A stretch of DNA of 64,000 bases from Syntrophorhabdaceae bacterium (GTDB taxonomy: Bacteria > Desulfobacterota > Syntrophorhabdia > Syntrophorhabdales > Syntrophorhabdaceae): positions 736,001 to 800,000 of the forward strand of contig OY762209.1 of the NCBI GenBank assembly GCA_963665295.1, given 5' to 3'. This document shows positions 13,179 to 62,974 of this stretch, in pieces. The notes below the pieces were generated by a model, which had not been told where the DNA came from, did no database searches, and saw nothing but the letters and a program-made list of their open reading frames with translations. The stretch's first letter is position 1. Each line of letters begins with the position of its first letter. Position numbers and translations under genes: made by a program.

Positions 13179-13532
13179 GGGGGCGATTGGTTTCGACAGA
13201 GTTGTAAGAGTCAAGGAGGCATGCCGGGTTTTCTGCCGACCCGTAAAAAAGGCGGAACTAAACACAACTGCAGACTCTCACGAGTACGCACTAGCTGCCT
13301 AGAGCAGCTACGTCATCCGGACTTTCTTCCTGCTTTAAGTCCGAGTATGGCGTCATCTAAGTAGGATAGTCTTTCCAGACACCTATAAGGAAAGGCGAAA
13401 TTTAATAGGCATGGGTGGGGTCGAACCTGTCAGTGGGTGCTTTCCCATCCGAGATTAAATCGCTGACTAAGCATGTAGGCTTTTTGGTTGCTTCTTCTTT
13501 GGACGCGGGTTCGATTCCCGCCGCCTCCACCA
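13179..13532 (+). ncRNA. ssrA: tmRNA; tag peptide (A)ADSHEYALAA* read from 13270-13302
   Basis: 5' GGGGGCGATTGGTTTCGAC, 3' GCGGGTTCGATTCCCGCCGCCTCCACCA, ALAA* tag; follows smpB. Confidence 0.96.
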
Positions 13533-13534
13533 TT

Positions 13535-14752
13535 TTACCTTTTATTTTCGGTATCTTCCGCACGATGATCTCGTGCGATTTCGTGCGAAGCCAATTTGAC
13601 GACCTTCCCTTCGAGAAGGTTCTTCCTGGTTGCCACTTCCATCTTTGCGTACTTGTCCACGCTGTCCATCCTGGCCCAGTCACCCGCTTCTTTGAGATCG
13701 GACTTGGAAAGACCGTACACGTTCAATAGCTGGCTCGCGCGGCTATGCTTCGTGCCGCTGTAAAGGTCTATATTTTCCCCCGCTACTTTGCAGGCTGCAT
13801 CCCAGAGCCTTTGTAAGGTCCGGGCGGTGTATCGCTTGCCCCTCTTTCTTCCACGGACCGAGACGAACATGTACGGGCTGATAATTCCATGTTCTCTTTG
13901 CTTCTCGGCTTCCACTCTTGTCCATGGTTCGAAAGCCGATACCATCGGGATCAGGTGTACCTGCTTGTCCTTGGTCCTGGTAATTTCCTGATAGTTGGAT
14001 ATGCCGCGCCAAATCTTAAAGACCCCATCTTCGAAGTCTTCCTTATAGAGCGCCATGGCCTCACCCGGCCTTCTCAGATGATACTTGAGAAACCAGAATA
14101 TCGGCTGATCCTCAACGGGAATAGCCTTAATGATCCGGTCCTGTCTGTCCTCGGGAAGCCACCGAATCACGGGGTCCACGATCTGGAAATCCTTTCGCTC
14201 GGGAAATGGGGGGATAGCCGGTATCCTTCGGGCCTTCCATGCGTACTTTAGGCAGGCATGAAGGCAGTAGATAACGTTCAGTTTTCCTTTGCCTACCCGG
14301 TTGATGGAGGACATGAGTTCCATAAGGGTGTCAAACTGGATTTCGTGAAGTTGAATCAGCTTCTTTTCAAAAAATGGCTTCAGGTGCTTGTTGATACTTC
14401 CCTTGTAGTCTTTGTAGGTAGCAGGGCTCAGCGTGGATTTGACGGCTTCAAGCCACGACTCCAGGTACGGGATGACATCCGTCTCATTGTGGGTGTACTT
14501 CTCCAGGCGAAAGCACCTATTTTCCTGGTCCCCCTGCATGGCGGACAGAAGCTTCTCGGCCAGGGCAAACCCCATGTCTCGTCCGCGATCATCGATGGCT
14601 TTGCGCATGGGCTGGCCCCGGTAAAACCAGATTTTATACGTGCGACGGTGAGGAGAATGGTACCATGACACGTAATACCGCCCTGACTTCTTGTCGAAGC
14701 CTATCAACCCTTTCATACAGATAGCGTATATTGAGGTCTCGTGCGATGTCAA
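13535..14752 (-). CDS. Tyrosine recombinase / integrase
   Basis: 'HLRRPGEA', 'TKD', 'LYSGTKHS', 'GDW..MDSVDKY'; core-binding domain 'LSPATYKDY'. Start is either TTG 14752 (AGGAGG RBS) or ATG 14716. Confidence 0.9.
   Translation of the reverse strand: MTSHETSIYAICMKGLIGFDKKSGRYYVSWYHSPHRRTYKIWFYRGQPMRKAIDDRGRDMGFALAEKLLSAMQGDQENRCFRLEKYTHNETDVIPYLESWLEAVKSTLSPATYKDYKGSINKHLKPFFEKKLIQLHEIQFDTLMELMSSINRVGKGKLNVIYCLHACLKYAWKARRIPAIPPFPERKDFQIVDPVIRWLPEDRQDRIIKAIPVEDQPIFWFLKYHLRRPGEAMALYKEDFEDGVFKIWRGISNYQEITRTKDKQVHLIPMVSAFEPWTRVEAEKQREHGIISPYMFVSVRGRKRGKRYTARTLQRLWDAACKVAGENIDLYSGTKHSRASQLLNVYGLSKSDLKEAGDWARMDSVDKYAKMEVATRKNLLEGKVVKLASHEIARDHRAEDTENKR
14723..14752 (-). promoter_or_regulatory. 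Putative sigma70 promoter of the integrase with an arm-type-like repeat in its spacer
   Basis: TTGACA (14752-14747), N18, TACGCT (14728-14723); the ATG at 14716 lies at the expected +1. Confidence 0.5.
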
Positions 14753-14897: not shown

Positions 14898-15100
14898 AGA
14901 TTTAGGGGTATTTCCCCTTAAAAAACTTTCTTTCCTTCACAAAGCCTGGGGAAAGAAAGGGGAAGGGCATCCGGAATTAAGCGGCTGACTCCATGCATCC
15001 GGACATGACGGATACCTCCGGCGTGCCGGGTGCCAAGAGGCAAACCTTAATGGAGCGATTCAGTGCAAAGACTGAGACGGGCGCATGTGCTGACGGCGGC
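14898..15100 (-). repeat. Structured non-coding leader, copy A
   Basis: Homologous, in inverted orientation, to 43309-43354 plus 43546-43704; contains several hairpins and a terminator-like stem with a T run. Confidence 0.8.
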
Positions 15101-15468
15101 GGAGATTTACTCGAACCCGCAAGTTGGTCCGATATGAACTGTGGGACGGGCAGACTCAGAATCGGATCTGCCGAATGGTTGAGCGTGAGAAAGGTATCCG
15201 ATTCCTATCGATTCGCGTGTTTGTGGACCGCATAGAAAGCACCATCAGGGCGAGGATGGACTCACCTATAAGTCTACCCCACGGCCTTTTGCCTTTTATC
15301 CACCATTACCACAAGAAAGCGAGACAGGTACGATATCTGGAGTGCGTAAGAGACTTTCGCAAAAACGCCAGAAATGAGTATAATCTTATTGGCGGGTTAG
15401 GCAACGAAAAAACATGCGGAAAATGCTAATGGTTATTGCGCGGAAAAGCCAACAAGAAAATTGCATTT

Positions 15469-16275
15469 TTACAGTCTTATAAATCTTGGCTCGCCGACTT
15501 GATCTGCGGGAAAATGAGTACAAGGCCTCTGTAATACGCTCAATCGCTTATGCGGCGTTAGCTGCCCCAGATTGCCTTCATATGATAAATAGACGACATC
15601 AAAGATTGATTTAGTCCAACCGGTCACAAGATCAACAGCAAGACCGACTGCCGTGGATGCCACAACGCCATTAGCCCAAACCACCTGCGGGTTGTTTCCC
15701 GCATCACCATAACGCTTAGCCTCGATGGCAAGCTTTTTCTCAGACAGATATCCCATACACCACATGCAGGGACCACCCGGGATCGAAGCAATAATCTGGC
15801 CGCTGGCGATAGGCGGTTGGGGATCTGCCCGGTTAACATCAATTCCAACGTCTATGTATGGCGTGAGGTGCCGGCGGCTGAACGCTTCGAGTTCTTGCCG
15901 TCCTTTGAATCCGTCCACGCAGCCGAAGATAATATCGCAACCCCTAAGAGCTGCAGGATCATTTTGCCACCAGTCTCGAATCATGAGCACGTGAGCCTTT
16001 GGCTGCAGTCCGCGTATGAGTTTCCTTGCGCTCGCGACCTTTGGTGTCTTCTTTGCGACGTCCCTTACGGTTGCACCGACGAGCCGATTCAGGTTTGTTT
16101 CCTCGACCCGGTCTGGATCACAGAGAACATACTTGTTGAACCCCACGTGGGCCAGCTGCTGCACAATATGCGAACCGCCACCGCCAAGGCCCACTACTCC
16201 AACAACGCAGTTGGCGATTTTTGTCTGCGCACCTTCACCCAAGAACGACTGACGGTCATAACGATCTTCATGCAT
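15469..16275 (-). CDS. ThiF/E1-like adenylyltransferase (BubD/BilD-like)
   Basis: GLGGGGS, D.DRVEETNLNR, GCVD, CMWC...CTH Zn motif; ATG at 16275 preferred as start. Confidence 0.88.
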   Translation of the reverse strand: MHEDRYDRQSFLGEGAQTKIANCVVGVVGLGGGGSHIVQQLAHVGFNKYVLCDPDRVEETNLNRLVGATVRDVAKKTPKVASARKLIRGLQPKAHVLMIRDWWQNDPAALRGCDIIFGCVDGFKGRQELEAFSRRHLTPYIDVGIDVNRADPQPPIASGQIIASIPGGPCMWCMGYLSEKKLAIEAKRYGDAGNNPQVVWANGVVASTAVGLAVDLVTGWTKSIFDVVYLSYEGNLGQLTPHKRLSVLQRPCTHFPADQVGEPRFIRL

Positions 16276-16789
16276 AAATGCCGCCCCCAAATGTTTGATT
16301 ATCAAGCGGATAACCGACTATGGTTACTTTCGTGACCCGCCGTGGAGAGACCTGTTTTGTCGGCCATATCAGCCCGGCGACACTGTTGAAACTGAAGACC
16401 ATCGCCCCGTGCACCGCATTCCCGCCAAGGTTATGGAATGAGGGTATTAACTTGCCAAGTTCACGACGATCAATCCTGCTGAAACTCGGCGGCCCCGAGT
16501 GTTCGTGTCGATGGACGTGAAGAATGCCCTCTTTTGTGGACAGGCTGTGTTCCATGGCATTTCGGATCGCAGCCGAGTTTATTCTTGCTCCGACGTAAGG
16601 GTCATTTATGTACTGTGTATCGGGTACGGAGAGATAATCGGTTACAAGAAGGAGGATACCTCCTTTGTCAAGAACGCTCCGCCGTGTAAACATAAACCCA
16701 ACACGTTCATGGGCAAAGGGATGCGGGCGGTCGAGATCTGCTCGCATCCCATCATAGACCAATCTTGTCATTTTTGCGTGGATCAGCAT
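16268..16789 (-). CDS. JAB/MPN-type isopeptidase (BubC/BilC-like)
   Basis: E(RVGF) ... HVHRH.H....FS.ID JAMM-like motif; operon context. Confidence 0.75.
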   Translation of the reverse strand: MLIHAKMTRLVYDGMRADLDRPHPFAHERVGFMFTRRSVLDKGGILLLVTDYLSVPDTQYINDPYVGARINSAAIRNAMEHSLSTKEGILHVHRHEHSGPPSFSRIDRRELGKLIPSFHNLGGNAVHGAMVFSFNSVAGLIWPTKQVSPRRVTKVTIVGYPLDNQTFGGGIYA

Positions 16790-17133
16790 GTCAAACCTCT
16801 CAGGTGTGCGGCCACCATCTGTGAAAGCCTTCGATCAGTCGGCTGCAACTGCCAAGAAAAAGCATGCCATGCCCGATCCAGAATCCATGCTCCACGAACA
16901 TTCCAGTTCAGGGGTTTTCCAGACTGAACCAGTTCGGAAAAATATAGGCGTGAGTTGTAGCCTTCCCTTTGGTTGGGGCACAGCAAGACATCGACTGTTG
17001 CCGGCAGACAGTTGGGCGGCAGTTTAAGCCCTGCAATCAAGAAATAGTCATAGGTTCCCTCTTGAGCATACTTGACCCCAGGAAACATGCTCTTGAGTTC
17101 GCTAATCTCATCTTCTGGAAAAGTCGTACCCAT
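16783..17133 (-). CDS. Prokaryotic E2-like protein (family E; BubB-like)
   Basis: 'LKLP...VDVLL.P..GY' and 'WHAFSW' motifs; sits between Ubl and JAB. Confidence 0.7.
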   Translation of the reverse strand: MGTTFPEDEISELKSMFPGVKYAQEGTYDYFLIAGLKLPPNCLPATVDVLLCPNQREGYNSRLYFSELVQSGKPLNWNVRGAWILDRAWHAFSWQLQPTDRRLSQMVAAHLRGLTC

Positions 17134-17142
17134 TTTGCCCTC

Positions 17143-17391
17143 TCACGATGATGAACCATCTTTCGGGTGGCTGATGAAGGTCTCCCCGCCCTTTATTGTG
17201 ATTCGTCCATCATCGGGCAATGGCTCGAACTTACCCTCAATCACCTGATCGAGATCATAGGCAAGCGGGATGCCAGCCAAGGTCTTGATGGCCGTGACGG
17301 TCTGATGGCCCCGGTGAATCGTGTACTGTTTGCTGTCTACTATGATTGTTACCTGGCTCTGCCCAGGCTGCCCATTTTCGTTTTGCATCAT
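17143..17391 (-). CDS. Ubiquitin-like (multiubiquitin-domain) protein (BubA/BilA-like)
   Basis: 'VTIIVD.K.Y.I.RG..TV..IK.LAGIP..YDL....I.IKGGE.F.S' beta-grasp pattern; C-terminus DGSSS; AGGAG RBS. Confidence 0.8.
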   Translation of the reverse strand: MMQNENGQPGQSQVTIIVDSKQYTIHRGHQTVTAIKTLAGIPLAYDLDQVIEGKFEPLPDDGRITIKGGETFISHPKDGSSS

Positions 17392-17545
17392 GATTCTCCT
17401 TTAGACTTAAGATAAGGGTCTTTACGACAACCTCTTTCCCTTCTATCCTCTATAGCCCAAAACTTTTTGTTTTTTTCCATGGCAAAAAGCGGGAAGTTGC
17501 GAGCACTATATATAAAGGAGGATGATCATGAGATGAGGAAGAAGA

Positions 17546-18265
17546 ATGAATAACGAGCTAGTCGAAAAACTGAAAGAGGTAGACTGGGACAGATTTATCC
17601 TCGAATTGGCACGTTTCGCATCGAAAAGGATCGAAAGGCTTTCCTGGAAACATGCCCGTATTCCAAAAGGTCTAACGGCCGATGGAATAGCCTTGCAAGC
17701 GATCGAAAAAGTGTTTGACGAAGAAAGGCGCTGGGACCCACAAAAAGATCCTGATCTCATGAAGTATTTGAAGTCAACCGTGAATAGCTTGATAAGTAAG
17801 CTTTACAAATCGAAAGAGTATCAAATTACGGAGCGATTTGAAGAAGGAGAGGACGGTGAGGACTTAATCCCATTACCAGCTGATTCGGACAGTCCCCATT
17901 CTGTAGCAATTCTTGGGCAGCCAATTGCCAACCCCGAACAGATATTACTAAAAAAAGAGGAAGAACAGCAGGCCAAGGAAATGACAGACAAGTTCCTTGA
18001 ATCTCTCGAAGACGATGAGGAGCTCGGAGAGATTGTGTTGTGCCTGCTTGAGGACATCACAAAACCCGCAGACATCGCTCAAGAACTGGGAGTCGAGGTG
18101 GAGGAGATCTATACGCGAAGGAAAAGGTTAATAAGACGCTATGGAGAATTCAAAAATATTATAAAGAAAGAAGGTATTCAATGGAGGCCAAAAACGGAAA
18201 AGGAGGGAGGTACTCAAAGTGCGTCGAGAATTTTTTTGACTTTCTCGGGGACGCCGAAGGATTGA
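17546..18265 (+). CDS. Divergent ECF/sigma-70-like protein
   Basis: Region-2-like 'TADGIALQAIEKVF...RRWDP....LMKYLKSTVNSLI' and region-4 HTH 'KPADIAQELGVEVEEIYTRRKRL'. Confidence 0.6.
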   Translation: MNNELVEKLKEVDWDRFILELARFASKRIERLSWKHARIPKGLTADGIALQAIEKVFDEERRWDPQKDPDLMKYLKSTVNSLISKLYKSKEYQITERFEEGEDGEDLIPLPADSDSPHSVAILGQPIANPEQILLKKEEEQQAKEMTDKFLESLEDDEELGEIVLCLLEDITKPADIAQELGVEVEEIYTRRKRLIRRYGEFKNIIKKEGIQWRPKTEKEGGTQSASRIFLTFSGTPKD

Positions 18266-18651
18266 GCGATGAGGACCTGACAAAGGACCTCCTTGCGGAG
18301 GGAATCGATCCCGAAGCGTTGCTTGCACGGGGCAGACTTATTGTGGAGACAAAACTGAAGGAGGCGAAATTATCTTGGAAAAGGAGGGCGCGCGAAAGAA
18401 TAGAATCGTTTGAACGGACAATATCTTCCGCAAAAATCGACATTCCTAATAGTCCTTCAGATGCTATGCTCAAGATTAGGGGGTTGCTCGGGAGCATCCC
18501 TGAAGGAAGCAGAATGCGTTATGCTCAATTTTATAGCAAAATGGACAAGCTTACAGAAGGGGAAGCTATATCAGTGTATCAAGACTTGCAAAAGCTAAAA
18601 CTCCTTGATGACGGAAACGAGGGGATAAGCGATGATCACTCGGGAAGCTAA
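18181..18651 (+). CDS. Hypothetical soluble helical protein (candidate anti-sigma / IrrE substrate)
   Basis: 156 aa; overlaps both neighbours; AGAAGG RBS. Confidence 0.6.
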   Translation: MEAKNGKGGRYSKCVENFFDFLGDAEGLSDEDLTKDLLAEGIDPEALLARGRLIVETKLKEAKLSWKRRARERIESFERTISSAKIDIPNSPSDAMLKIRGLLGSIPEGSRMRYAQFYSKMDKLTEGEAISVYQDLQKLKLLDDGNEGISDDHSGS

Positions 18652-19411
18652 TTGCCGCTCTGCCGTTTCAAAGGCGCGAGAGATTATTGGAGCACTGTTT
18701 ATCGAAGAACCTAAGGACATCGATATCGTTGCTATCGCCGCCGAAAGAGGCGCCTTCGTAAGGGAGGACCTCTTAGGCGGCGCTGATGGTCGATTAACCG
18801 TTTTTGGAACAAACGGTATCATCACCGTAAAAGCAGACATCCCCGAACAAGGGAAGAAACGGTTTGTGGTGGCTCACGAACTGGGGCATTTTGAGTTGCA
18901 CCGTGAAAACTTTGCGACCGTAAACTGCACAGAGATAGACTTTTATCAGTGGAGCAAGAACAAACCCATTGAGGTAGAAGCTAATCATTTCGCAAGCGAA
19001 GTCTTGATGCCTGAGCCGATCTTCAAAAGTAAGATAAGAAAAAAGAAGCTCTCGAAAGACCTCCTGCTTTCTTTGGCAAACGAATTTCAAACCTCTCTGA
19101 CTGCCACAGCTATCCGTTACCTTGCTTTTGGAACAGAGTACGCACTCGTAGTGTCAAAAGACTCACGAATCACTTGGTTCATAAAAGGTCGTGACTTTCC
19201 TTTCTTTATAAACACCATCGGCAACGTTCACCCCGAATCTCTTGCGTATGAGTTCTTTAAAGGAAGAGATCTTCCAGATGATTTCTTTTCAGTTTCTGCA
19301 ATAGGCTGGGTCGATAATCCTCGGATGAAGAACAGGGAGATACTGGAGCTCGCCATACCGTTACCAAGCTATAATGAAGTTTTGAGCTTCCTTTACGGAA
19401 CGTGTCAATGA
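18632..19411 (+). CDS. ImmA/IrrE (CapP-like) metallopeptidase; last 7 residues replaced by IS sequence
   Basis: 'RFVVAHELGHF', 'EVEANHFASEVLMP', 'FQTSLTATAIR'. Removing the IS restores ...FLYVDPDDSD* (stop at 20930-20932). Confidence 0.88.
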   Translation: MITREANCRSAVSKAREIIGALFIEEPKDIDIVAIAAERGAFVREDLLGGADGRLTVFGTNGIITVKADIPEQGKKRFVVAHELGHFELHRENFATVNCTEIDFYQWSKNKPIEVEANHFASEVLMPEPIFKSKIRKKKLSKDLLLSLANEFQTSLTATAIRYLAFGTEYALVVSKDSRITWFIKGRDFPFFINTIGNVHPESLAYEFFKGRDLPDDFFSVSAIGWVDNPRMKNREILELAIPLPSYNEVLSFLYGTCQ

Positions 19412-19435
19412 AAATGAGACACTTCCATCAGATAT

Positions 19436-20434
19436 TTAGTGTACCCCGCCATCGCTCGTTGATAATGGCTTATTGATCCAGACGGCGTCAGGCAGTGACG
19501 CCGGTTTCGGCATCCTCCCCTTGAACCGTTCCGGATGTTTTTCATACGCAGCCCGCAGTACGTCCGTACGACCTTCAATGATCCTCAACGCTCTTCCATA
19601 ATGGACGTCCTCGGGGGTGAGAAGACCTATCCCCGAATGGTAATGCTCGGTATTGTACCAGGGGAAGAATGTCTGGCAAAAGGCCCGGGCATCCTCAATG
19701 GAGCCGAACCTTTGAGGGAACTCGGGCCGGTACTTCATGGTCTTGAACTGAGATTCGGAATAGGGGTTGTCATTACTGACCGAAGGCCTCGAATGGCTCT
19801 TGGTGACCCCGAGATCGGCCATGAGCAGGGCGACGGGTTTCGACGTCATACTCGACCCCCTGTCCGCATGGATCAGGAGCTTACCGGGCTCTATCATTTG
19901 CTTCTCGCAGGTCTCCGCGATCAGTTTGCGAGCAAGGGCGGCAAGTTCCCTGTGGGCCACCATCCACCCCACCACATAGCGGCTGTAGATGTCGAGGATC
20001 ACATAGAGGTAGTAGTAGGTCCATTTTACGGAACCCTTGAGCTTCGTGATATCCCAGCTCCACGCCTCGTTGGGCGCCTTCGCGAGGATCTCCGGTTTTG
20101 CGTACCGGGGACGGGAGACCTGCCTCCTCCTTTCTTTCAGCTCACCTTCTTCTTCAAGGATCCGGTACATGGTGCGCACTGAACAGAGATAGCTCTTCTC
20201 GTCCAGGAGGGCCGCGTAGATTTCCCGGGGTGCTTTATCGATGAAGCGGTCCGAATGAAGGATATCAAGTACATCGTTCCGTTCCCCGAAGGAGAGGGCC
20301 AAGGGAGAGAGACGGTTCAAAGGTTCCTTCTCTTTCGGATGCTGCCACCGGTAAAAGCCCGCACGGGATACGTCGAGGGCGTTGCAGGCAGGGCGGATAC
20401 CCACTTCATGGGCAAGCGATTGCGTGATGTTCAT
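19436..20434 (-). CDS. IS3-family transposase OrfB (rve/DDE)
   Basis: WSWDIT, ILDIYSRYVVGW, HADRGS, DNPYSESQFKT. Confidence 0.93.
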   Translation of the reverse strand: MNITQSLAHEVGIRPACNALDVSRAGFYRWQHPKEKEPLNRLSPLALSFGERNDVLDILHSDRFIDKAPREIYAALLDEKSYLCSVRTMYRILEEEGELKERRRQVSRPRYAKPEILAKAPNEAWSWDITKLKGSVKWTYYYLYVILDIYSRYVVGWMVAHRELAALARKLIAETCEKQMIEPGKLLIHADRGSSMTSKPVALLMADLGVTKSHSRPSVSNDNPYSESQFKTMKYRPEFPQRFGSIEDARAFCQTFFPWYNTEHYHSGIGLLTPEDVHYGRALRIIEGRTDVLRAAYEKHPERFKGRMPKPASLPDAVWINKPLSTSDGGVH

Positions 20435-20829
20435 GACTTCTCCTCGCTCGACCCCTTGAGCAGCTCGGCCACTTTTTTTTGGACCTCGATAATGAGCTCC
20501 GCCTGTTTCAGTTTATGGGTGAGCCTCGTGTTCTCCTTTTCCAGTTCGATGGTGCGACGGATAAGGGGATCAGGCTTTTGTGTGACGGGTCCTCTCTTTT
20601 TCGGGATGAGGCCCTGGTGAACCTGACGCCGCCATGAGGTGAGGCTCGATGAATAAAGTCCCTCTCTGCGCAGAAGCGCCCCTATCTCACCCTTCCCGGT
20701 ACAGTTCTCCACCTCCTTGAGGATACGGAGCTTGTACGCCGCGGTGAATTTCCGGCGAACTGCCTTTTCCGGTACTTCCGGATCGGGGACTACCCTTGGT
20801 GATGCCATGACTGATTTCTTTTCTTCCAC
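20431..20829 (-). CDS. IS3-family OrfA (HTH)
   Basis: 'RRKFTAAYKLRIL', 'LRREGLYSSSLTSWRR'; A8 slippery run near the 3' end. Confidence 0.88.
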   Translation of the reverse strand: MEEKKSVMASPRVVPDPEVPEKAVRRKFTAAYKLRILKEVENCTGKGEIGALLRREGLYSSSLTSWRRQVHQGLIPKKRGPVTQKPDPLIRRTIELEKENTRLTHKLKQAELIIEVQKKVAELLKGSSEEKS

Positions 20830-20944
20830 GATCGTTCTTTCCTTCCCGCCCCCAAGAGTCTAAACTATTGGGTGGGAAGTGTCTCACTTATATTGGCACG
20901 GAGGGTATGTGGACCCCGATGATTCCGACTGATTTAGTTTTTCC

Positions 20945-21482: not shown

Positions 21483-22271
21483 TCAAATAGTGGGCACCGG
21501 AATACGACTGAGGGGAATATTCATGGCTCCGTTTGTACAATATCCTTTTTCGGAGATTTCCTTGAGTCTCAGCGTCGACTCTTTGTCGCAAAGTCGAATA
21601 AGATAATTGAGGAGGTTATCTTGTGAACTATCGCCCTTGCCATACACAATAATGCAGTTTGATGGAAGATATGTGTCTCTGAAAATGGGCAGTGTCCTGC
21701 TATTATAATGGCCATGGTTATCAAGATCGTGGTCTGACACGAGGCAGACTGTTCGTGCAACGTTTCGCCTGTCCCGGTTAAGGCTTTCTATAATACACAG
21801 CCATCCATATTTTTCTGGAGGAATCTCCTGAGGGCAATTTCGAAAAAGAGAGGCCCCGCTCTGTGGGAATTCGACGTTATAGATGGATGGGTCCGATGTA
21901 GGTCGGACTTGACACTGGACTATTCCGCTCGCTGACACCAAATCACCACGGACTTCCTTTGTATTCGTATCTACGCCTATGATCAAGTCGAACGAGGACA
22001 AATATAGCATGAGATCGGCCTCGTTAGGGATAACCTGATCGTGTATGCGGGTGAGAACCTTTTCCTTTCCTGATTGGCCGATATAGTGCGTTTGAGAGAA
22101 AAGCACGGCAGGCTTGACCGTGCTATCGTCATAGGCAATGCCACCCTCAATCGTCATCTTCTCGCGGTCGTAATGGAAGGCTTTTATGGGCACAGGATAT
22201 CCGACTATGGCAGTGTGTAGCCTTGGTTTCTTGGCGGGATTGCGGTTCTTGTGTTTCTTGCTTCGCCCCAT
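21483..22271 (-). CDS. Hypothetical protein (262 aa)
   Basis: Long low-GC ORF with an AGGGG RBS; no family recognised. Confidence 0.6.
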   Translation of the reverse strand: MGRSKKHKNRNPAKKPRLHTAIVGYPVPIKAFHYDREKMTIEGGIAYDDSTVKPAVLFSQTHYIGQSGKEKVLTRIHDQVIPNEADLMLYLSSFDLIIGVDTNTKEVRGDLVSASGIVQCQVRPTSDPSIYNVEFPQSGASLFRNCPQEIPPEKYGWLCIIESLNRDRRNVARTVCLVSDHDLDNHGHYNSRTLPIFRDTYLPSNCIIVYGKGDSSQDNLLNYLIRLCDKESTLRLKEISEKGYCTNGAMNIPLSRIPVPTI

Positions 22272-22303
22272 GCAAGCACCCCTTGTTTGTCTTGGTCATA
22301 AAC

Positions 22304-24185
22304 TCAGCGAGCGGTTCCACTGGCTTGTTGTGCCATCAACTTGCATAAATACGGGATCATCTGACCTAGTGTCACGTCACTCATCTAATGTCGGATAAAG
22401 TCGCCTAAGTTTCACCCGCGCATCCTTAGTAGTAAATTGCCAGTTCACCTTTGCGTTGAGATTGTCGCGATGGGCCTGCCAGGCAGACACGGCGGAGTGG
22501 ACCTCGGCGAGAGTGTCGATCCGGCGACTCAGGCATTGATGAATGAGCACGTTAAGCTCAATCTCCGCCATATTGAGCCAGCTTCCATGTTTGGGAGTAT
22601 AGACGAATTCAAAGCGGTCCCAGATGCGTTTGGCCTCTTCGGGAGAAAAGGCTTCATAAAGAGAGCCGGGTTTATGGGTGTTCAGGTTATCCATGACAAG
22701 GGTGATCCTTTTGGCCTTTCCATACCGTCCTGAAAGTTCCCGGATGAACTCCGCCCAGTCGCGCTTCGTTCTCCTTTCCGATACCTTGGTCAGGCGCGTG
22801 CCCGCCAATGGTTCGTTGGCCATAAATACGGTACAGACGCCACATCGCTCGTATTCGTAGTCGTGACGCTCGAGCCGTCCCGGAGCGCGGGGAATCGGGG
22901 TACGCGTTTCTTTGATCAGTTGTCTTGGGGTTTCATCCATACAGACCACCGGGAATCTTTTATCATACGGGCGTTTATATACATCGAGTACGTTCTCCAT
23001 GGCGGCGACGAAATCAGCATTGCCCTCCGGTGGAATGACCCATCCTTGCTGCTTCCAGGGTTTTGTTTCGTTTTTTTAAAACCCGACGCACGGTTTCATA
23101 GGAGATATTCTCGATATAATTGAGCGCTACGGCCCGGTTCGCGAGCATACGCAAGGTCCACCTCGCAAAACCTTCTGGTGGTTCGCTACAGCTCAAGGCA
23201 ATGAGGTGGGCCTCGAAATCGCCATCCGCCTTCTTCTCGTAGACTCGCTCTGCTTTGTGTCCGGTAAGGGCAGTCTCAAGTCCTTCTTCCACGAATCGCT
23301 TTTTTACTCTATCTATCTTACGCATGCTGATTCGCAACACTGCCGATATATCCTCGTTCTTCATCGGGTGGTCCTGGAACCGGCCCTGATCGCAATTGAG
23401 AAGAACCAGCGCATTGAGCACCTTTTGGGCTTTATGATTTCCTTTTTGCACCACGCCTTCAAGTTCCTTTCGCTCTTCTTTTTCGAGCACCACCCTATAT
23501 TTTATCATTCGGACCTCCCCATGGTGAAATTTAACCCTTGAGGAGATTCTATATCATACTATACGACATTACAAGTGTGATGTGACACTAGAAACACATT
23601 CAAGTTCTTATCAATATACTCCGTTCTCGATTTGTATTCCTTGGCCAATCGCATGCCCTGTCTACTTGCGGCTTTGAAAGCTCTTTGCATAGCTGCAGCG
23701 TTTTCTTCAAGGTCCCACCATATGTCTTCGATATCTACCCACTGGTATCCGTCGTTGAATGCTAACCTGATGAAGGTTTTGTGTGTATTTATATGTCGAA
23801 GTTCAGTATCGTCATTCAGTACTCTTAGGACGCGCTTCAACGGAGTAATGGAAACGTTTACCGTTTTGCGCAAAGAAGCCAATGCTTTCTGCTGTTGGCT
23901 GGGATCCCTCAACATTCTCTTTGTCGTTTTGCTAACCTCTCCGGATAATGACGCGAGAAACGAGAATAATCTCTCTGCAAGCTCGTAAGACGACGTATGG
24001 TAATTTTGGAGCTGGTAGTGCAGACGTAGAATGGAATGCAAGTCCTTCAAATTGCTCATACCTCTTTCGAACTCACTTACGGAGAATTTGAGCCGTATGA
24101 GGGCATGGCCCAACTCCCCCCAATGAGCCATTACCCCTTCCTCAGGCTGTATTTCACGGTAATGGACTTTCAGAATATGAGGCAT
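22304..24185 (-). pseudogene. HEPN-like protein interrupted near its C-terminus by IS630
   Basis: RHINTH (R-x4-H) motif. Removing the IS at CTAG restores ...NVFLGQMIPYLCKLMAQQASGTAR* ending at 22304. Confidence 0.5.
22369..23588 (-). mobile_element. IS630-family element, copy A (1220 bp)
   Basis: IRs GTGTCACGTCAC / GTGATGTGACAC; TA duplicated in a CTAG target; orfA 23014-23508 and orfB 22377-23000 joined by a TTTAAAAAAAC frameshift site; 'VMDNLNTH', 'TPKHGSWLNMAE'. Confidence 0.95.
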
Positions 24186-24258
24186 GTCAACGTTCTCGAT
24201 CAAGATTAATATTCATTGTGCCATTGAATGCGGTATATCAAATATTCCACCCAACGTT

Positions 24259-25113
24259 TCAGGTATGACGTGGTTCAATTCCTATGCCCTTTTTAGTGAG
24301 TAGCGTTTTGCTCTTGTTGAAGTAATATACTGCTTTATCAAAGGCTTCACCGGGGAATAAATAGTCTCTGCTGAGAAAGGCGCCATTGGACCATAATTTA
24401 AGGAGATCCCTCTGTACAACGATTGTTGCCAACCTCAGGTGCTCAAAAGACCTGCCATTGGACAACGGGTCTGCAAGGCGCATAGAGAATCCTTGTTGTA
24501 AGTGCGGTCTAAGCCAGTCAGCTGGCTTTAGTCTTAGATCTTTGACTATGGCGATGCCAGCAACGCTACGAGGATAGGCTATTAAATAGAGGAATCCCGT
24601 ACTGTCTTCAATGCTGGAACCATCGAATGCATTATTGCTATCATGATACGCAAACCACAATGCTGTTTGAATGTGGTCGACCACGTCTATCCAACGGGTT
24701 TTTAGGCCGTAATGCTGGGCAAGGGCCTCTCGCTCTTCATCCGTGCCAATAGGATCAAAGGTGGGCGCAATAGCGTTGATTACATCGTTGATCCATGTTT
24801 GGTTGGCGTTAATCTGTAAATGTGTTTTGCACCCACGATATAATGAAGGAATAAGTGGATGATTTTTTGTCTGGCCTCTTAGCAGAAAATCCGTGTCCAT
24901 CGTATGCAAGTGGTACTTGAGGCTTCCTATAGCCAACATCAGACCCCTATAATCATAGATGTTTAGGACCGCCCTCTCGGTAGACCGATTGGAGTAATTA
25001 CCCCAATTTCGCTTCACCAGTTCGGTTACTATGGTTTTGTCGATTATGCCTTTGATTCTCCGTTTCTGTGACGCTGAAAGCCAAGGCAGCTCAGCAGTGG
25101 GCATTACGGACAC
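24259..25113 (-). CDS. FRG-domain protein
   Basis: 'LLRGQ....LIPSLYR', 'LAQHYGLKTRWID', 'ALWFA', 'RPHLQQG'. Confidence 0.85.
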   Translation of the reverse strand: MSVMPTAELPWLSASQKRRIKGIIDKTIVTELVKRNWGNYSNRSTERAVLNIYDYRGLMLAIGSLKYHLHTMDTDFLLRGQTKNHPLIPSLYRGCKTHLQINANQTWINDVINAIAPTFDPIGTDEEREALAQHYGLKTRWIDVVDHIQTALWFAYHDSNNAFDGSSIEDSTGFLYLIAYPRSVAGIAIVKDLRLKPADWLRPHLQQGFSMRLADPLSNGRSFEHLRLATIVVQRDLLKLWSNGAFLSRDYLFPGEAFDKAVYYFNKSKTLLTKKGIGIEPRHT

Positions 25114-54974: not shown

Positions 54975-55190
54975 TCACCCCCCTCCGAATAATGCACAGC
55001 CTTGCAGTTTGAATCTTTCGACTAACTCCTTCAGGTCCTTTTCTGTCATCTCGAAATACCCTGCCATACACGTCAGACACATCATCCGTTCAATCTGCCG
55101 ATGGATGAGTTTCTTGTTAAGTGCAATTTCATTGTGGGAAAGTATCTCTTTGTCGCAGTAAGCGCAACCGACTTGTTTCCCCCCACTCAT
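54975..55190 (-). CDS. Small Cys-rich (CxxC...CxxC) protein, last gene of the BREX operon
   Basis: CAYC...CLTC...GCALF; ATGA overlap with brxL. Confidence 0.7.
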   Translation of the reverse strand: MSGGKQVGCAYCDKEILSHNEIALNKKLIHRQIERMMCLTCMAGYFEMTEKDLKELVERFKLQGCALFGGG

Positions 55191-56644
55191 TGGTCTGCCT
55201 CGCGTAACGTGTAAGCAGCTACGTTCTTCCCTCCGTATTCGAGCGGGTCTATCATCTGCAACTGCTGCCGGATCACTGTACGCATCTGCACGGCGGGACG
55301 CAAACAGTATCGTTTAAACTCCCCTCTGTCTATTCTGTCGGGTTCCGTGACGTGAGGAAAAAGCAATTTTAGGTAAGCCGTGCATAATCGCAAAACTGCT
55401 TCCGTATCACGAGTGTCCGCCGCAGCGGGATAGTCCACCAGCTTTTCAACGACATGCCGGTAGATCAGTGTTTCCGAAGGCTGGCGAAGCAGATGTATGA
55501 TTTCAGAAAAATACTCCGTGTTCAGCGCCCAACCGTTGATTTTTAGGTTCTCACTCATGCGCGGGATGTCGCGCCCCTTGATAAAACCGTGGAACCGGTC
55601 CAATAATGCCGACTCGTGAAACACGACCGGCAACCTCTGGAACATGTCTCTGGTTTCATCCATCTCCGTTTGTGGGATGTTTCCGAGCAGAATGACACCG
55701 GCCCCGCCAATGATACGATTCTTGCCGACCGTAATCTCCCCACTTTCCATGTAGGCTTTTAGCCCTCCTTGCATCTCGCTCGGGTCGTGGAAGTTGATCG
55801 ACTGGATTTCATCCAGCGCTACGAAGTCGTTTGAGGCGATCAGGCCAGGACTCTTCCCATTGATATCGCCGAACATCTTCGCCCGCGTGAGCGTCCCTCC
55901 GCTGACCAGCCAGCCGTATTTCCCTATCCGCCCGAACAGATACGACTTGCCCGTTCCTTTGGGTGCCAGTTCCACCAGATTTAGTCGTGGTTCGATGAAT
56001 GGCAGCAAGCGCGTCAACACCGTGTGTTTCTGTACCCAGTCTTCGTATCCCTCAGGGCTGTAATCAATCGCACCTAAGACAACGTCGATCCACTCCTCAG
56101 CATTAAACTGACTGCGAGCCTCTCTGTAAGCGTCGAGATCAATGGTGTACGGACAGAAATTCTTATACTCTAAGAGTGTGAAACATCCCCGCGGAGTTTC
56201 GCCGTCAGGGCTTCGGTACCCCAGTTGTACCAGCCCCCAGCCCCCAGCCGTTCTTACAACATCATCTTTAATCCGGTTCCAGACATAATCCTCAATCAGC
56301 GTTTCAGCATGTCCAAGCCCCAATTCCGGAATCGCAAACGTAAACTCGTCGGTCCGTACGCTGAATTGAATTTCAATTTTGGCCAGGAACTTCTTCGTGC
56401 GTCCCTCGCTTCGCGCTGCGTCCTTCAATCCCAGCAAATTCTCCCGGCGCGGGATGATTTCGTAAATGTATTTTCGCAAAGCTTCGGCATCATGGATTCT
56501 CCCGTCAGACTCCGCCTTGCGTTTCAGAATCCAATCCCGCAAAAACGATGGAATCGATGCCGCTTTGAAGATTGCCACGATGTTCGGATCTTTGAAAACT
56601 GTCGTGTCCGGGAATACCGCCCGCAATTTAATAGTATCGACCAT
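55187..56644 (-). CDS. brxL: BrxL-like AAA+ protein (no C-terminal Lon protease domain)
   Basis: 'RLLPFIEPRLNLVELAPKGTGKS', 'VALDEIQ', 'ESALLDRFHGFI.G', 'RD..AV.R'. Confidence 0.88.
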   Translation of the reverse strand: MVDTIKLRAVFPDTTVFKDPNIVAIFKAASIPSFLRDWILKRKAESDGRIHDAEALRKYIYEIIPRRENLLGLKDAARSEGRTKKFLAKIEIQFSVRTDEFTFAIPELGLGHAETLIEDYVWNRIKDDVVRTAGGWGLVQLGYRSPDGETPRGCFTLLEYKNFCPYTIDLDAYREARSQFNAEEWIDVVLGAIDYSPEGYEDWVQKHTVLTRLLPFIEPRLNLVELAPKGTGKSYLFGRIGKYGWLVSGGTLTRAKMFGDINGKSPGLIASNDFVALDEIQSINFHDPSEMQGGLKAYMESGEITVGKNRIIGGAGVILLGNIPQTEMDETRDMFQRLPVVFHESALLDRFHGFIKGRDIPRMSENLKINGWALNTEYFSEIIHLLRQPSETLIYRHVVEKLVDYPAAADTRDTEAVLRLCTAYLKLLFPHVTEPDRIDRGEFKRYCLRPAVQMRTVIRQQLQMIDPLEYGGKNVAAYTLREADQ

Positions 56645-56665
56645 GGTTAATTGCCCTCGATGAAA

Positions 56666-58795
56666 CTACAGATCAAAATCATCATTCTCAACAATTTGCA
56701 CACGTTTGTCAACTGTCTTCGCCTTTGGTACGAACTGCCCTGTCATCGAGAAAACCACAACAGGCACCAGTCGTTCCTCAAGAGTCGCTCCGCCGTGTAG
56801 CTCAAAGCTCTGCCCTCCACCCTTCTTGGGCAACCGGTTATACCCACGCACGGCCCAATGCCCGCCGTCCAACGTTTCCTCCAGCTCCAGTGGGCATCCG
56901 CTTTGCGTCGTCCGCTCACGGTAGCGCCAATCGGCAACCACCGCACCAGTCTCACACGCAAGTGTCTGCGCCAGCCTCGGTTCTGCCTGCCACGCCAACA
57001 CCGCTAGTCGCGAACTGCCGTGGTCTGCCGTGACAAGTACTCGATCAAACCGCGCCAGCCCCTCAGCCACACGCGGCAACACCTCGCCACCAATCACATC
57101 CAGTTCTGCAGCCAGATTTTCCTCCGGGGACCTCGTCTCGTGCGCCTCCGCACCACGGTGCGCAATATTGTCGAAGCGCTTGATATCCGGCAACCGCCGC
57201 GCAGCATCCGGCCAGAAGATGTTGTTGAACTCTGTCGATGTCGGCAAATGGGCCTGGGCGACCTCAGCCAAATCCACGCCAATACCCCGTTTTTGCGCCA
57301 GCGCCACCAACATCGGCAGCCACTCCGCACCCATCCCGTCCACCACCAGCAACGCGCACCCATTGTCGGAAGCATATCGTTGCACCACCGTGGCCCGCGA
57401 CTGCATGGAACCCGGTGGAACCTCGCGCTGGGACCTCTCGTAAAACTCTGGCGTCACGCGGCCAGCCACCTTCAGTTCACGATATACTTTGAAATACTCT
57501 TCCAGTGTCTTGTCGCCAAAAAAGAGATCCTCGTTCATATACATAGCTGCTTCTGGATACACGACTTTTACAACGTTTGACACAATACCGTCCACGGCGC
57601 AACGCCTAAGTAGTTCCGCCCGCTCCGCGTCTGTTTCGCAATTCAACCATGGCGCAACTCGCGACGTGGATTCGCAAATGCAACGAGCGATGAACTGCCG
57701 GATGTCCGCGTCCGACATTCTAACGTCCGCTTCCAGTATAGCATCTCTGCGTTCGTCAGCATAGACTACTGATTGATCCAGCCATTCCGCTGCACCCATT
57801 ACGTATGCGGAGCGGAAATTACCGGCAAGGACGCCTTCTTGCCTTGCAACACGTTCAAGGTAACTTCCCTTGGGGGCGATATTTTTGACTAGCCACAGTG
57901 TCGCCTCACGTTCTGCGCCTTTGCGCTCATCAACCACACGCAAGACACGCTTAGCGACTCCACCTTCCGGAAAAAACATCGTCTTGAGAGTTTCGGGCAG
58001 TGTTTTCCCCGCTCCTTCTTTGCCCCGCTCGCAAATCCATCGCAAAGCTTCTTCGGACAATCCCGCATCTTCCGCGTCGTAGAACACGCGAACGAAATCC
58101 CGCAGACACACGACCTGCAGCACCTCGGCGTTGAGCCCAGCCAATTCCCGACCTTCTGAGGTTACAACAATCCGCCTTACAGAGCTGTCGTTCGGATGTT
58201 CCTCGGTATATCGCAAATACTTCTGAAACGTATCACACTCTTCCGGGATGAAAGATGCTAAATCGTTGCCGACCAACATAACCTCCGTACGCCCCGGGTT
58301 TCTTTCCGCCTCTTTGGAAGCACCCCTTGACACGATTTGGTCGGTGACAATTTCAATTAGTTGCTTCCCCTGGCGATAGCGCGGATTGGCGAAAACATCC
58401 CTGAGTATCAATCCCGTCGCGTCATCGCTCTGCAACAAGCAGACCGCCTCCCGCCCAGACGCACCGTCCACCCGTTCGCGCAAAGCGACAATCGCAGCCC
58501 GTCTATTCTCGTTCGTTAACAACGCAAGATAACCAGGCATCCCCAGCAATACCAAAGCCTTACCGGTTGTGCGCTGTGCCGACATCTCATTGTACACTCT
58601 CCCGAAGACTTCATCGGGCATTGGAAGCCACGCTCCCTCCCTCACCAGATCACTCAAGCGTAACTCAACGTCGCCGCGTTCTCGGTAAAATCGACGCAAT
58701 GCCGTCCAGCTTTCTCCCGAAGGCACGATCACCACCCGCGCCTTCGGCTCCGCAAGGGGATTCCTGATGTATTCGCAATACTCGCTCAACGTCAT
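56666..58795 (-). CDS. pglZ: BREX-4 PglZ phosphatase-fold protein
   Basis: 'VVDGMGAEW', 'LPTSTEFN', 'VTADHG', 'HGGATLEE.LVP'. Confidence 0.9.
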   Translation of the reverse strand: MTLSEYCEYIRNPLAEPKARVVIVPSGESWTALRRFYRERGDVELRLSDLVREGAWLPMPDEVFGRVYNEMSAQRTTGKALVLLGMPGYLALLTNENRRAAIVALRERVDGASGREAVCLLQSDDATGLILRDVFANPRYRQGKQLIEIVTDQIVSRGASKEAERNPGRTEVMLVGNDLASFIPEECDTFQKYLRYTEEHPNDSSVRRIVVTSEGRELAGLNAEVLQVVCLRDFVRVFYDAEDAGLSEEALRWICERGKEGAGKTLPETLKTMFFPEGGVAKRVLRVVDERKGAEREATLWLVKNIAPKGSYLERVARQEGVLAGNFRSAYVMGAAEWLDQSVVYADERRDAILEADVRMSDADIRQFIARCICESTSRVAPWLNCETDAERAELLRRCAVDGIVSNVVKVVYPEAAMYMNEDLFFGDKTLEEYFKVYRELKVAGRVTPEFYERSQREVPPGSMQSRATVVQRYASDNGCALLVVDGMGAEWLPMLVALAQKRGIGVDLAEVAQAHLPTSTEFNNIFWPDAARRLPDIKRFDNIAHRGAEAHETRSPEENLAAELDVIGGEVLPRVAEGLARFDRVLVTADHGSSRLAVLAWQAEPRLAQTLACETGAVVADWRYRERTTQSGCPLELEETLDGGHWAVRGYNRLPKKGGGQSFELHGGATLEERLVPVVVFSMTGQFVPKAKTVDKRVQIVENDDFDL

Positions 58796-58799
58796 GGTA

Positions 58800-62954: not shown

Positions 62955-62974
62955 GTCTTCGATCTCCCTGTTGG

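Follow-up and report, generated by a model that had tools for sequence, protein, structure and literature searches.

From sequence comparisons, structure models and analogies to known systems, we predict that three neighbouring genes of a Syntrophorhabdaceae bacterium encode a switch for immunity genes, in which a peptidase activated by single-stranded DNA (ssDNA) would cut an anti-sigma factor and the freed sigma factor would transcribe itself and a defence operon. We regard this reading as probable. The genes lie in the window, i.e. the whole stretch of 64,000 nucleotides that was analysed, and they encode an ECF-like sigma factor (ORF1, 17546..18265, 239 aa), a predicted anti-sigma factor of an unnamed family (ORF2, 18181..18651, 156 aa) and a CapP-type M78 zinc peptidase (ORF3, 18632..19411, 259 aa). 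All three are on the + strand, with overlaps of 85 and 20 bp, and a spacer of 154 bp separates them from the gene of a ubiquitin-like protein (Ubl). An earlier note on this DNA had described three overlapping genes that diverge from a Ubl operon, and the coordinates confirm this arrangement. ORF2 is a hybrid protein, consisting of an N-terminal sigma clamp, as predicted from a complex model, and a CapH-type tail, as judged from sequence alignment.

The trio is carried by a 63.5-kb integrated conjugative element. Its left attachment repeat (13507..13536, + strand, 30 bp) is located at the 3' end of the tmRNA (13179-13532), followed by an integrase gene (13535-14752, Pfam match to Phage_integrase), and blastn of the genome found an identical 30-mer at genome positions 812996-813025. 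None of the eight capH/XRE matches in the genome is located inside the element, in agreement with the earlier statement that an XRE-type helix-turn-helix repressor is absent. An insertion sequence (IS; 19396..20905, - strand), which was found by blastn of the genome and contains an ORF of the rve integrase type, interrupts the last codons of the peptidase gene. At least eight other full copies of this IS were found in the genome by blastn. Other copies of the IS are also present elsewhere in the conjugative element. To the right of the IS, the peptidase frame (20906-20932) contains eight codons before the stop, so that about seven C-terminal residues of the peptidase are swapped for four; the earlier note likewise gave the last seven residues as changed. 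The region 15146-19425 shows no differences in the assembled contigs from two runs, one of which may correspond to the source sample.

ORF1 was previously called ECF-sigma-like, and this holds up in the profile comparisons: its family profile matches the solved structures of SigH, SigE and AlgU with E-values from 2e-6 to 3e-4. The model of ORF1 (pLDDT 86) and the profiles contain both sigma domains, with sigma2 at about residues 1-95, a disordered linker, sigma4 at about 130-204 and a C-terminal tail in the part that overlaps ORF2. As in the ECF (group 4) sigma factors of about 200 aa, only sigma2 and sigma4 are present, with the match to TIGR02937 (E 6.4e-6) remaining under the curated cut-off. 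When the model was searched with Foldseek, nearly all rows were sigma chains, none of them at an E-value of 0.001 or better. As such a factor, ORF1 would form a holoenzyme and initiate transcription.

ORF2 belongs to a family with relatives in 200 clusters (E≤1e-3). The protein itself has no match in Pfam or NCBIfam, and a Pfam search over 119 members of the family found no domain family common to more than 7 of them. As its highest 19-residue hydropathy is 0.83, we consider the 156-aa protein to be soluble, as had been claimed before, and it contains no zinc motif. The model (pLDDT 88) consists of two short helices and one helix of 40 residues; the predicted parts are sigma-binding N-terminal helices (8-66), the long helix (44-83) and the CapH-like tail. 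Searches with the model of the whole protein, which also bear on the four-helix ASD fold of class I, showed no clear fold match: Foldseek returned nothing clear (no match at E≤0.001) and VIA-align no hit with Z≥8 among 48,161 chains. ORF2 profiles against PDB sequences gave unrelated helical matches, and structures of the CapH C-terminus were absent among the matches listed. A search of the Atlas returned unnamed clusters under 0.9, which we note as a lead.

The binding of ORF2 to the sigma factor, a check that had been proposed for the earlier reading, is predicted with a complex score of 0.76 (0.76, 0.80 and 0.76 in three runs), far above the best of three controls (0.00), although the score may mirror the likeness to solved sigma/anti-sigma pairs. 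Of 157 solved complexes, 116 attain the mark used for this score, compared with 2 of 215 mismatched pairs; at least 89% of the contacts agree between runs and the partner pLDDT is 77. In the predicted complex, ORF2 residues 14-22 contact sigma residues 164-168 and 192-196, ORF2 residues 47-55 contact sigma residues 14-22, and the interface takes in the recognition-helix residues 186-199. Anti-sigma factors of classes I-III, as described in PMC7406223, place their first helix on sigma4 and their last helix on sigma2. The predicted mode of ORF2, with helix 1 on sigma4 and the long helix on sigma2, corresponds to this dual mode.

The CapH-like tail, like the two promoter-like sites described below, had been missed in the earlier note. 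Aligned to 15 CapH proteins, the C-terminal half of ORF2 matches with a probability of 71% (E 3.6e-5), whereas the reversed and ten permuted controls all remained below 0.7%. The N-terminal half reached 0.6% against the CapH alignment, and no CapH helix-turn-helix was found in ORF2. The final 29 aligned residues match the tail of CapH at the site that is cut by CapP, with Y118-S119 of ORF2 placed on the Phe-Arg of CapH. In CapH, the cut has been mapped at F82|R83, and the variant R83A is not cut by E. coli CapP. Across the ORF2 family, the capH model gives weak matches in 36 of 119 members (best E 1.5e-5), where some envelopes reach the N-terminal part of the capH model. The residue after the cut site is Arg in 93 of 118 family rows, with F-R-N as the consensus type, and the motif ranks among the best-conserved parts of ORF2. 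Cleavage at this position is predicted to create a new C-terminus without an Ala-Ala degron.

The peptidase ORF3, for which an HExxH ImmA/IrrE-type enzyme had been proposed, matches the PADLOC capP profile over positions 6-240 of 242 of this three-domain M78 peptidase (E 2e-59). It also matches Pfam M78 (E 3e-15), with the HELGH motif at 82-86, and the CapP structure 7T5T (E 6e-17), where H82, E83, H86 and E114 are aligned; its profile further matches IrrE (3DTE, E 3e-7). These four residues are kept in all 29 peptidase rows. When mapped on 7T5T, C99 corresponds to the cysteine switch, K75 to the position of R90 and W182 to that of W196, and D103 could also be mapped. The residues C99, D103, K75 and W182 thus match the switch and ssDNA residues described for CapP (PMC13228613), and they are frequent in the family, with C99 in 28, W182 in 27, D103 in 23 and Arg or Lys at position 75 in 28 of the 29 rows. 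The position of K195 in E. coli CapP is occupied by Thr in ORF3, which counts against the proposed switch, and the positions of Y264 and W280 could be mapped only tentatively.

It could be argued that sigma and anti-sigma factor are real, but that the peptidase has another substrate or signal and that the sigma factor is freed in another way. CapP has been modelled to contact the helix-turn-helix of CapH (PMC13228613), and this surface has no partner domain here; in addition, ORF2 is predicted to be cut outside the region that binds the sigma factor. Nevertheless, the peptidase gene is directly preceded by ORF2 in 76 of the 79 testable loci, a fusion of ORF2 and peptidase exists (P0118) and the cut-site motif is conserved as described above, and we consider another substrate or signal improbable.

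The spacer contains two promoter-like sites in opposite orientation. The first faces the sigma gene (17479..17509, + strand, TGGCAAAAA ... CGAGCA) with a leave-one-out score of 11.2, and is likely to be autoregulatory. The second faces the Ubl operon (17450..17480, - strand, TGGAAAAAA ... TGGGCT) and scores 12.0. From these sites, transcription is predicted to start near 17514 (+ strand) and 17446 (- strand). Among the 402 single sites that score at least 9 in this genome, they rank 34 and 9, respectively, and the pair is the best of three divergent pairs. Both orientations of the motif reach at least 9 (leave-one-out) in 34 of 66 spacers, including this one, and the pair is below the threshold in the other 32; no pair was found in 1,320 shuffles and 330 control windows. 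In 25 low-scoring spacers, a second motif of the TGTCCG type reaches 271-300 compared to 254-261 in shuffles, which is suggestive only.

The spacer also bears on a different role of the proteins, in which sigma factor and ORF2 form a two-part CapH: an ORF2 dimer would place two sigma4 domains as repressors on the spacer, and cleavage would derepress a housekeeping promoter. The two -35-like parts overlap here as a near-palindrome, the ORF2 tail is homologous to the dimerisation tail of CapH and a single sigma-ORF2 fusion protein exists (P0144). Against such a role, the distance from one site to the other differs between spacers by over 100 bp (+16 to roughly -124 bp), which would be too much for a rigid dimer to accommodate, and both sites come with a conserved -10-like part of their own. 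Furthermore, the predicted interface with ORF2 covers the recognition helix, and a scan for the sigma-70 consensus found four sites, the same as in shuffles, none of which is in the spacer. There is thus little probability for a repressor of this kind.

The activating switch is also consistent with the distribution of the trio. We gathered related loci through the peptidase, and found the order sigma, ORF2, peptidase in 71 of 79 testable loci and ORF2 and peptidase, with no sigma factor detected, in five; these loci are in part related and not independent, and the profiles were partly built from the loci that were then counted. Of 51 loci with enough flanking sequence, 33 face a Ubl/E1, CBASS, MBL or DUF2188 operon, which is the outcome of a neighbourhood survey that had been suggested earlier. 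The remaining 18 face none of these four classes, and 11 of them are without an annotated divergent defence gene. No complete trio was found in 80 viral loci, where one locus (L159) has a weak match to ORF2 and no detected sigma factor, and two motif-only proteins had no relatives in searches of viral sequences. In 60 related genomes, ORF2 was not found except for three weak matches in long ORFs.

The trio could alternatively serve mainly to control how the mobile element is excised or transferred, similar to ImmA/ImmR, with the Ubl operon as a bystander. The integrase of the element is located 2.8 kb from the trio, and some homologues adjoin integrases without a defence operon. Yet defence operons are the commonest divergent neighbours across loci, and the two best motif sites of the 63.5-kb element are those of the spacer, with three weaker ones (10.8, 9.9 and 9.1) and none at the integrase, which leads us to consider control of the element as very improbable.

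The divergent operon is encoded on the - strand and contains four separate genes. The ubiquitin-like protein (17143..17391) matches Pfam Multi_ubiq under the cut-off (E 7e-4) and has three residues after its last Gly. The E2-like protein (16783..17133) has no Pfam match and aligns with Prok-E2_E proteins; its S93 is invariant in 10 of 10 rows of this alignment, and the His that would follow is absent. The third gene (16268..16789) was assigned to a JAB/JAMM-like peptidase by motif and position, with no Pfam match, from an E...HxH...S...D pattern that we take to be the JAB/JAMM motif. Genes at the same position in three other loci (L016, L118 and L142) have weak Prok-JAB matches. The fourth gene encodes a ThiF/E1-like adenylation enzyme (15469..16305, Pfam ThiF, E 6e-29), whose crossover region contains a Tyr and no Cys, with an ambiguous alignment to the tyrosines of type I Bub.

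This operon was compared with two named types. Bub operons are defined by a DUF6527 (BubE) gene, by BubAB/BubCD or BubBD fusions, by Ser in the E2 and by Tyr without Cys in the crossover loop of the E1; here, the genes are separate, and the stretch from the E1 gene to the integrase contains no ORF of more than 45 aa on the strand of the operon. Bil operons have the order Ubl-E2-DUB-E1 and the operon resembles them in this order, but its E1 has about 270 aa without the catalytic-Cys insertion. No Bil model is among the PADLOC matches listed (for the E1, the best 25 of 27), and the BilD model of the library does match locus L123.

Based on these results, we propose the following mechanism. ORF2 would hold the sigma factor inactive through the two predicted contacts of its helices. 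From the homology to CapP and CapH, ssDNA would displace the cysteine switch of the peptidase, which would then cut ORF2 at Y118|S119. As this putative cut falls some 50 residues past the sigma-binding part, an extra release step is probably needed. It is likely that tail-mediated dimerisation is lost or that a host protease degrades the N-terminal fragment, by analogy to CalpT, Csx30 and RseA. Once free, the sigma factor would drive transcription of both its own cassette and the divergent Ubl operon, resulting in positive feedback. With a sigma clamp in place of the DNA-binding domain of CapH, derepression would turn into activation. The protease-gated sigma switch of the earlier note is therefore in line with the two sigma domains, the predicted binding, the CapH-like tail and the promoter-like site that faces the Ubl operon, with the correction that cleavage at the predicted position would probably have to be followed by a further step.

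The copy in this genome is divergent and may be impaired. Tyr-Ser replaces the aromatic-Arg of the cut site, as in 4 of 118 rows in all (Phe-Ser is found in five more), and the equivalent of the polymerase-binding DAED motif in region 2.2 is T-A-D-G with a single acidic residue, although the family consensus is acidic and the last position is Asp or Glu in 88 of 103 rows. In addition, both -10 parts deviate from the consensus and IS copies are found in the peptidase gene and elsewhere in the element. It is thus conceivable, if unlikely, that the family works as described and that here the partner is left uncut or the sigma factor is not loaded on the polymerase, with a silent or uninduced Ubl operon. 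However, Phe-Tyr-Ser occurs also in the three homologues that are most similar to ORF2 (59-71% identity) and Ala-Asp-Gly in the closest sigma homologue, and these shared residues argue for a sub-lineage rather than decay. Furthermore, the three frames are open, no catalytic residue is lost and the scores of both promoter-like sites exceed the threshold.

Among known systems, CapH and CapP (Lau et al. 2022; Calloji et al. 2026, PMC13228613) share with the trio the peptidase family, the cysteine switch, the ssDNA-groove residues, a substrate tail that is homologous at the cut site and the divergent position next to CBASS, 6a, 6e/Bub, Bil and DUF2188/DUF3892 operons. In contrast, ORF2 has no detectable XRE helix-turn-helix and carries predicted sigma-binding helices, and the trio would act by activation, using a dedicated sigma factor with promoters of its own. 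IrrE/DdrO and ImmA/ImmR likewise combine an M78 peptidase with regulator cleavage linked to DNA damage, but XRE repressors are cut and no sigma factor is involved.

Sigma-based cascades are known from other defence loci. In type III CRISPR (bioRxiv 10.1101/2024.05.08.593097), CalpL-CalpT-CalpS is a three-gene cascade of protease, soluble anti-sigma and ECF-like sigma factor; after the cut, the N-terminal fragment of CalpT stays on the sigma factor and host proteases finish the release. That system uses a cA4-activated SAVED-Lon protease and an Ala-Ala degron in CRISPR loci, in contrast to the M78 zinc peptidase, the putative ssDNA signal, the end without Ala-Ala and the non-CRISPR operons of the trio. 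In Csx29-Csx30-CASP-sigma of type III-E CRISPR (PMC10028731), the anti-sigma factor is also cut outside an N-terminal sigma-binding domain, and sigma sites within the defence locus provide positive autoregulation; its CHAT protease, however, is activated by target RNA on Cas7-11 and belongs to a family unrelated to ORF3. DdvS-DdvA of Myxococcus xanthus (PMC11506125) is an ECF sigma/anti-sigma pair that controls a CBASS-CRISPR island, where DdvA contacts sigma2 and sigma4 with a three-helix N-terminal bundle. DdvA is a transmembrane, zinc-binding protein with a periplasmic TPR-CHAT domain, whereas ORF2 is a soluble protein that lacks a zinc motif and is encoded next to a separate cytoplasmic peptidase.

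The closest description of the trio is one sentence in Lau et al. 2022 (bioRxiv 10.1101/2022.04.27.489752), on 24 CBASS systems in which capH and capP are accompanied by a predicted sigma70-family factor. The earlier claim that no characterised example is known holds for these loci, which are uncharacterised and likened to ours by their description, but does not extend to switches of protease, anti-sigma and sigma factor in general, which are known in CRISPR defence. The Bub data set of PMC13373217 has no entry with 'sigma', and the accessible part of the supplement to the ECF re-classification contains no IrrE, ImmA, DUF955 or PF06114.

The described DNA-damage regulators of immune operons are CapW, CapH with CapP and CapK with CapS, all of which lift a repressor. 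We lean slightly towards the view that immune regulators responding to DNA damage include a fourth, widespread class, represented by the trio, and that this class is the first to act by activation. In it, a CapH tail would be joined to a new soluble anti-sigma factor, and CapP would free a private ECF sigma factor with its own promoter code; short proteins with only the clamp may serve as mimics that resist cleavage and turn switches of this type off. With the motif, cut site and interface residues reported above, the switch model can be tested. If true, sigma-based control would combine low basal expression and positive feedback with a promoter that is unread by the housekeeping sigma factor. 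Phage protection has not been demonstrated for Bub operons, and such a switch may account for some Bub-like operons without phage protection when these are cloned without their regulator. As the genes that face the trio in several loci are of unknown family, the trio could serve as a marker for uncharacterised defence genes.

The trio lies on the plus strand and consists of a sigma-like gene (ORF1, 17546-18265), the gene of a middle protein (ORF2, 18181-18651) and a CapP-type M78 peptidase gene (ORF3, 18632-19411). As the earlier note had described, the three ORFs overlap by 85 and 20 bp and face the divergent minus-strand Ubl operon (15469-17391) across a 154-bp spacer. We consider it likely that, in response to ssDNA, the peptidase cuts ORF2, the clamp on the sigma is lost and the sigma transcribes in both directions.

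The trio is a real and conserved feature. Searches with peptidase alignments gave 68 genome loci, the best 80 of 374 metagenome matches and 80 viral loci. Of the 148 non-viral loci, 69 were dropped because the peptidase scored weakly or the upstream DNA was too short. Sigma and ORF2 occur in this order in 71 of the 79 retained loci, ORF2 only in five and neither in three, where the profiles derive partly from the counted loci and some loci are near-duplicates. The three loci with neither have short or split peptidase ORFs. By record title, the genome loci come from Desulfobacterota, Planctomycetota, Ignavibacteriota, Blastocatellia, Myxococcota-type and gamma/betaproteobacterial genomes. Among 400 genomes of the phylum, four others have a peptidase match; three carry the full trio, the fourth is interrupted by a transposase, and none of the four adjoins a Ubl operon.

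Several variants were observed. Two loci of one genome (L027 and L029) contain ORF2 and the peptidase with no sigma detected. At L026:8886-12725, another sigma-like gene with a peptidase lies on the other strand, oriented convergently to the first trio, and in L127:6219-6530 a sigma start is joined to an ORF2 tail, which looks like an internal deletion. A sigma-like domain is fused to ORF2 in P0144 (339 aa) and ORF2 to the CapP peptidase in P0118 (274 aa, partial); each fusion was seen in one sequence on one contig and may thus be an assembly or calling error. Six loci (L052, L055, L161, L163, L165 and L175), four of them on viral contigs, form a second lineage with a gene that looks sigma-like by eye, a CapP-like peptidase and a non-XRE partner of 110-160 aa that does not match the ORF2 profile.

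The peptidase covers the capP model nearly end to end, is the only capP match in the genome and matches structure 7T5T with an E-value of 6e-17. Every one of 29 trio peptidases has the zinc ligands and the catalytic Glu, and 28 have the switch Cys. At the positions of E. coli R90, D118 and W196, with the numbering inferred through the Thauera structure, 28 of the 29 have R/K, 23 have D and 27 have W, respectively. PMC13228613 reports tests of switch, R90, D118 and W196-type residues in CapP. In the trio, ssDNA would open the cysteine switch and the peptidase would cut a CapH-like tail of ORF2.

The ORF2 family (200 clusters at 50% identity, mostly 140-157 aa) has no Pfam name. ORF2 has an N-terminal part predicted to bind sigma and a CapH-like C-terminal part, where the family has (F/Y)-R-(N/K) and then an amphipathic helix. 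Compared by profile, the C-terminal part and 15 CapH proteins of the XRE type from loci of this study align over 29 columns (probability 71%, E 3.6e-5), compared to 0.6% for the N-terminal half and <0.7% for reversed or permuted controls. CapP cuts CapH at F82|R83, and the F-R of CapH aligned with Y118-S119 of ORF2. We regard it as very improbable that the peptidase instead has another target. After cleavage of ORF2, the clamp could be lost via de-dimerisation or host proteolysis, by analogy with CalpT (bioRxiv 10.1101/2024.05.08.593097) and Csx30 (PMC10028731).

The suggestion that ORF2 binds the sigma-like protein is supported by modelling: the predicted complex scored 0.76 (0.76, 0.80, 0.76) and the best of three controls 0.00. 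Of 157 solved complexes 116 reached the mark, as did two of 215 mismatched pairs; with our own alignments these counts are only approximate. Contact agreement was at least 89% and partner pLDDT 77. In the models, helix 1 of ORF2 contacts sigma4 and its long helix contacts sigma2, including the region 2.2 helix; the tail (92-150) lies outside the interface. Known anti-sigmas are described as binding sigma4 and sigma2 in the same way (PMC7406223), and the complex score may therefore owe something to resemblance to solved complexes. In the public annotation, ORF2 (P0004, 129 aa) begins 27 codons late and lacks helix 1. In addition, 16 short proteins (P0073, P0084, P0087, P0088, P0091, P0102, P0108, P0110, P0119, P0121, P0137, P0147, P0149, P0151, P0153 and P0155) retain only about the first 45 residues of ORF2, the predicted clamp, in unrelated sequence and without the cut-site tail. 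These may be uncleavable mimics; searches with two of them found no relatives among viruses.

ORF1 matches TIGR02937 at E 6.4e-6, under the cut-off, and a 103-homologue profile retrieved nine PDB sequences, eight ECF/SigH-type sigmas and one designed repeat. Its model has two helical domains with a disordered linker, and its Atlas neighbours (0.96-0.98) either lack a name or carry Sigma70_r2/r4. When 66 regions upstream of the sigma genes were sampled de novo, the motif TGGCAAAAA-N12-13-CGGCA emerged (score 820 vs 506-519 for three shuffled sets). Most scoring regions contain two copies at variable spacing, one toward sigma and one outward, from which the freed sigma is predicted to transcribe in both directions. 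By leave-one-out, both orientations reach at least 9 in 34 of 66 regions, including the window (11.2 and 12.0), in 0/1,320 shuffles and in 0/330 windows from 112 other M78 loci. In the window's genome, 402 single sites pass and there are three divergent pairs, the spacer pair being the best. Most loci without the motif fall into a sub-group whose sigma4 recognition helix differs and for which a weak alternative motif is suggestive only. A four-codon ORF (17522-17536) in the sigma-gene frame stops nine bases upstream of the sigma start. The earlier note had reported no XRE repressor near the trio, which holds: all eight capH/XRE matches of the genome lie outside the element that carries the trio. 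That sigma and ORF2 form a composite repressor is, in our estimate, scarcely probable.

It is unlikely that this copy of the trio is impaired. The IS (19396-20905) affects about seven terminal peptidase residues, as proposed, and swaps them for four others. The sigma family keeps a DAED-type acidic motif (final position D/E in 88 of 103 rows), which here is T-A-D-G, a change common to the closest homologue too; some ECFs are described as inactive once this charge is lost (PMC8999054).

The trio is carried in a 63.5-kb element with a tyrosine integrase, conjugation-type genes (as read from the sequence) and ends of identical 30-bp repeats of the tmRNA 3' end. That transfer of the element is the real output has almost no likelihood in our view. 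BREX genes BrxL, PglZ and BrxC (55187-64000) share the element; the motif scan detected no strong trio-type site where these genes start, just one of 9.1 within BrxC. Beyond the peptidase, the minus strand at 21483-25113 encodes an FRG-domain protein; two ORFs without annotation (214 and 262 aa) are also encoded there, and a transposase pair has inserted between them. A short multi-copy stretch (raised depth, broken contigs) lies between the integrase and E1 genes (14900-15146).

To describe the divergent neighbours, we used the 51 trio loci that have 1.5 kb or more of upstream sequence, four near-duplicates having been removed, and listed 234 ORFs (Pfam scan of 141, PADLOC scan of 30). ThiF/Ubl operons are faced in 24 loci (six with DUF6527, one with BilD), CBASS in four, MBL plus E2-E1 in three and DUF2188/DUF3892 in two; together these four classes make up a raw fraction of 33/51. 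Seven further loci face AbiE, AAA ATPase, restriction, NucS or XRE-M78 genes, and in 11 Pfam/PADLOC annotated no divergent defence gene. The operon classes are those listed for CapH/CapP by Lau et al. The window's operon follows the Bil gene order and encodes a short E1 that lacks a Cys insertion and an E2 that has the Prok-E2_E serine; BubE is absent. It fully matches neither the Bub nor the Bil definition; a like four-gene layout adjoins the trio in L016, L095, L118 and L142. Four loci (L017, L031, L021 and L148) have a strong outward site without an annotated divergent gene; a small gene or an RNA may be present there, or an operon may have been lost. In four others (L011:3027-3404, L012:8398-8775, L087:3092-3469 and L084:6402-6782), the first divergent gene encodes a 126-127 aa protein without a Pfam/PADLOC match; these are possibly one new family.

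In the full-text literature consulted, from which subscription journals are largely absent, we found no CapP/IrrE peptidase characterised with a sigma and an anti-sigma; the comparison included PMC13373217, PMC11506125, PMC7826278 and the Bub and Bil preprints. Lau et al. (bioRxiv 10.1101/2022.04.27.489752) mention a predicted sigma70-family factor next to capH and capP in 24 of their CBASS systems. A member of neither system, the trio would work like CapH/CapP on its input side and like CalpL-CalpT-CalpS on its output side.
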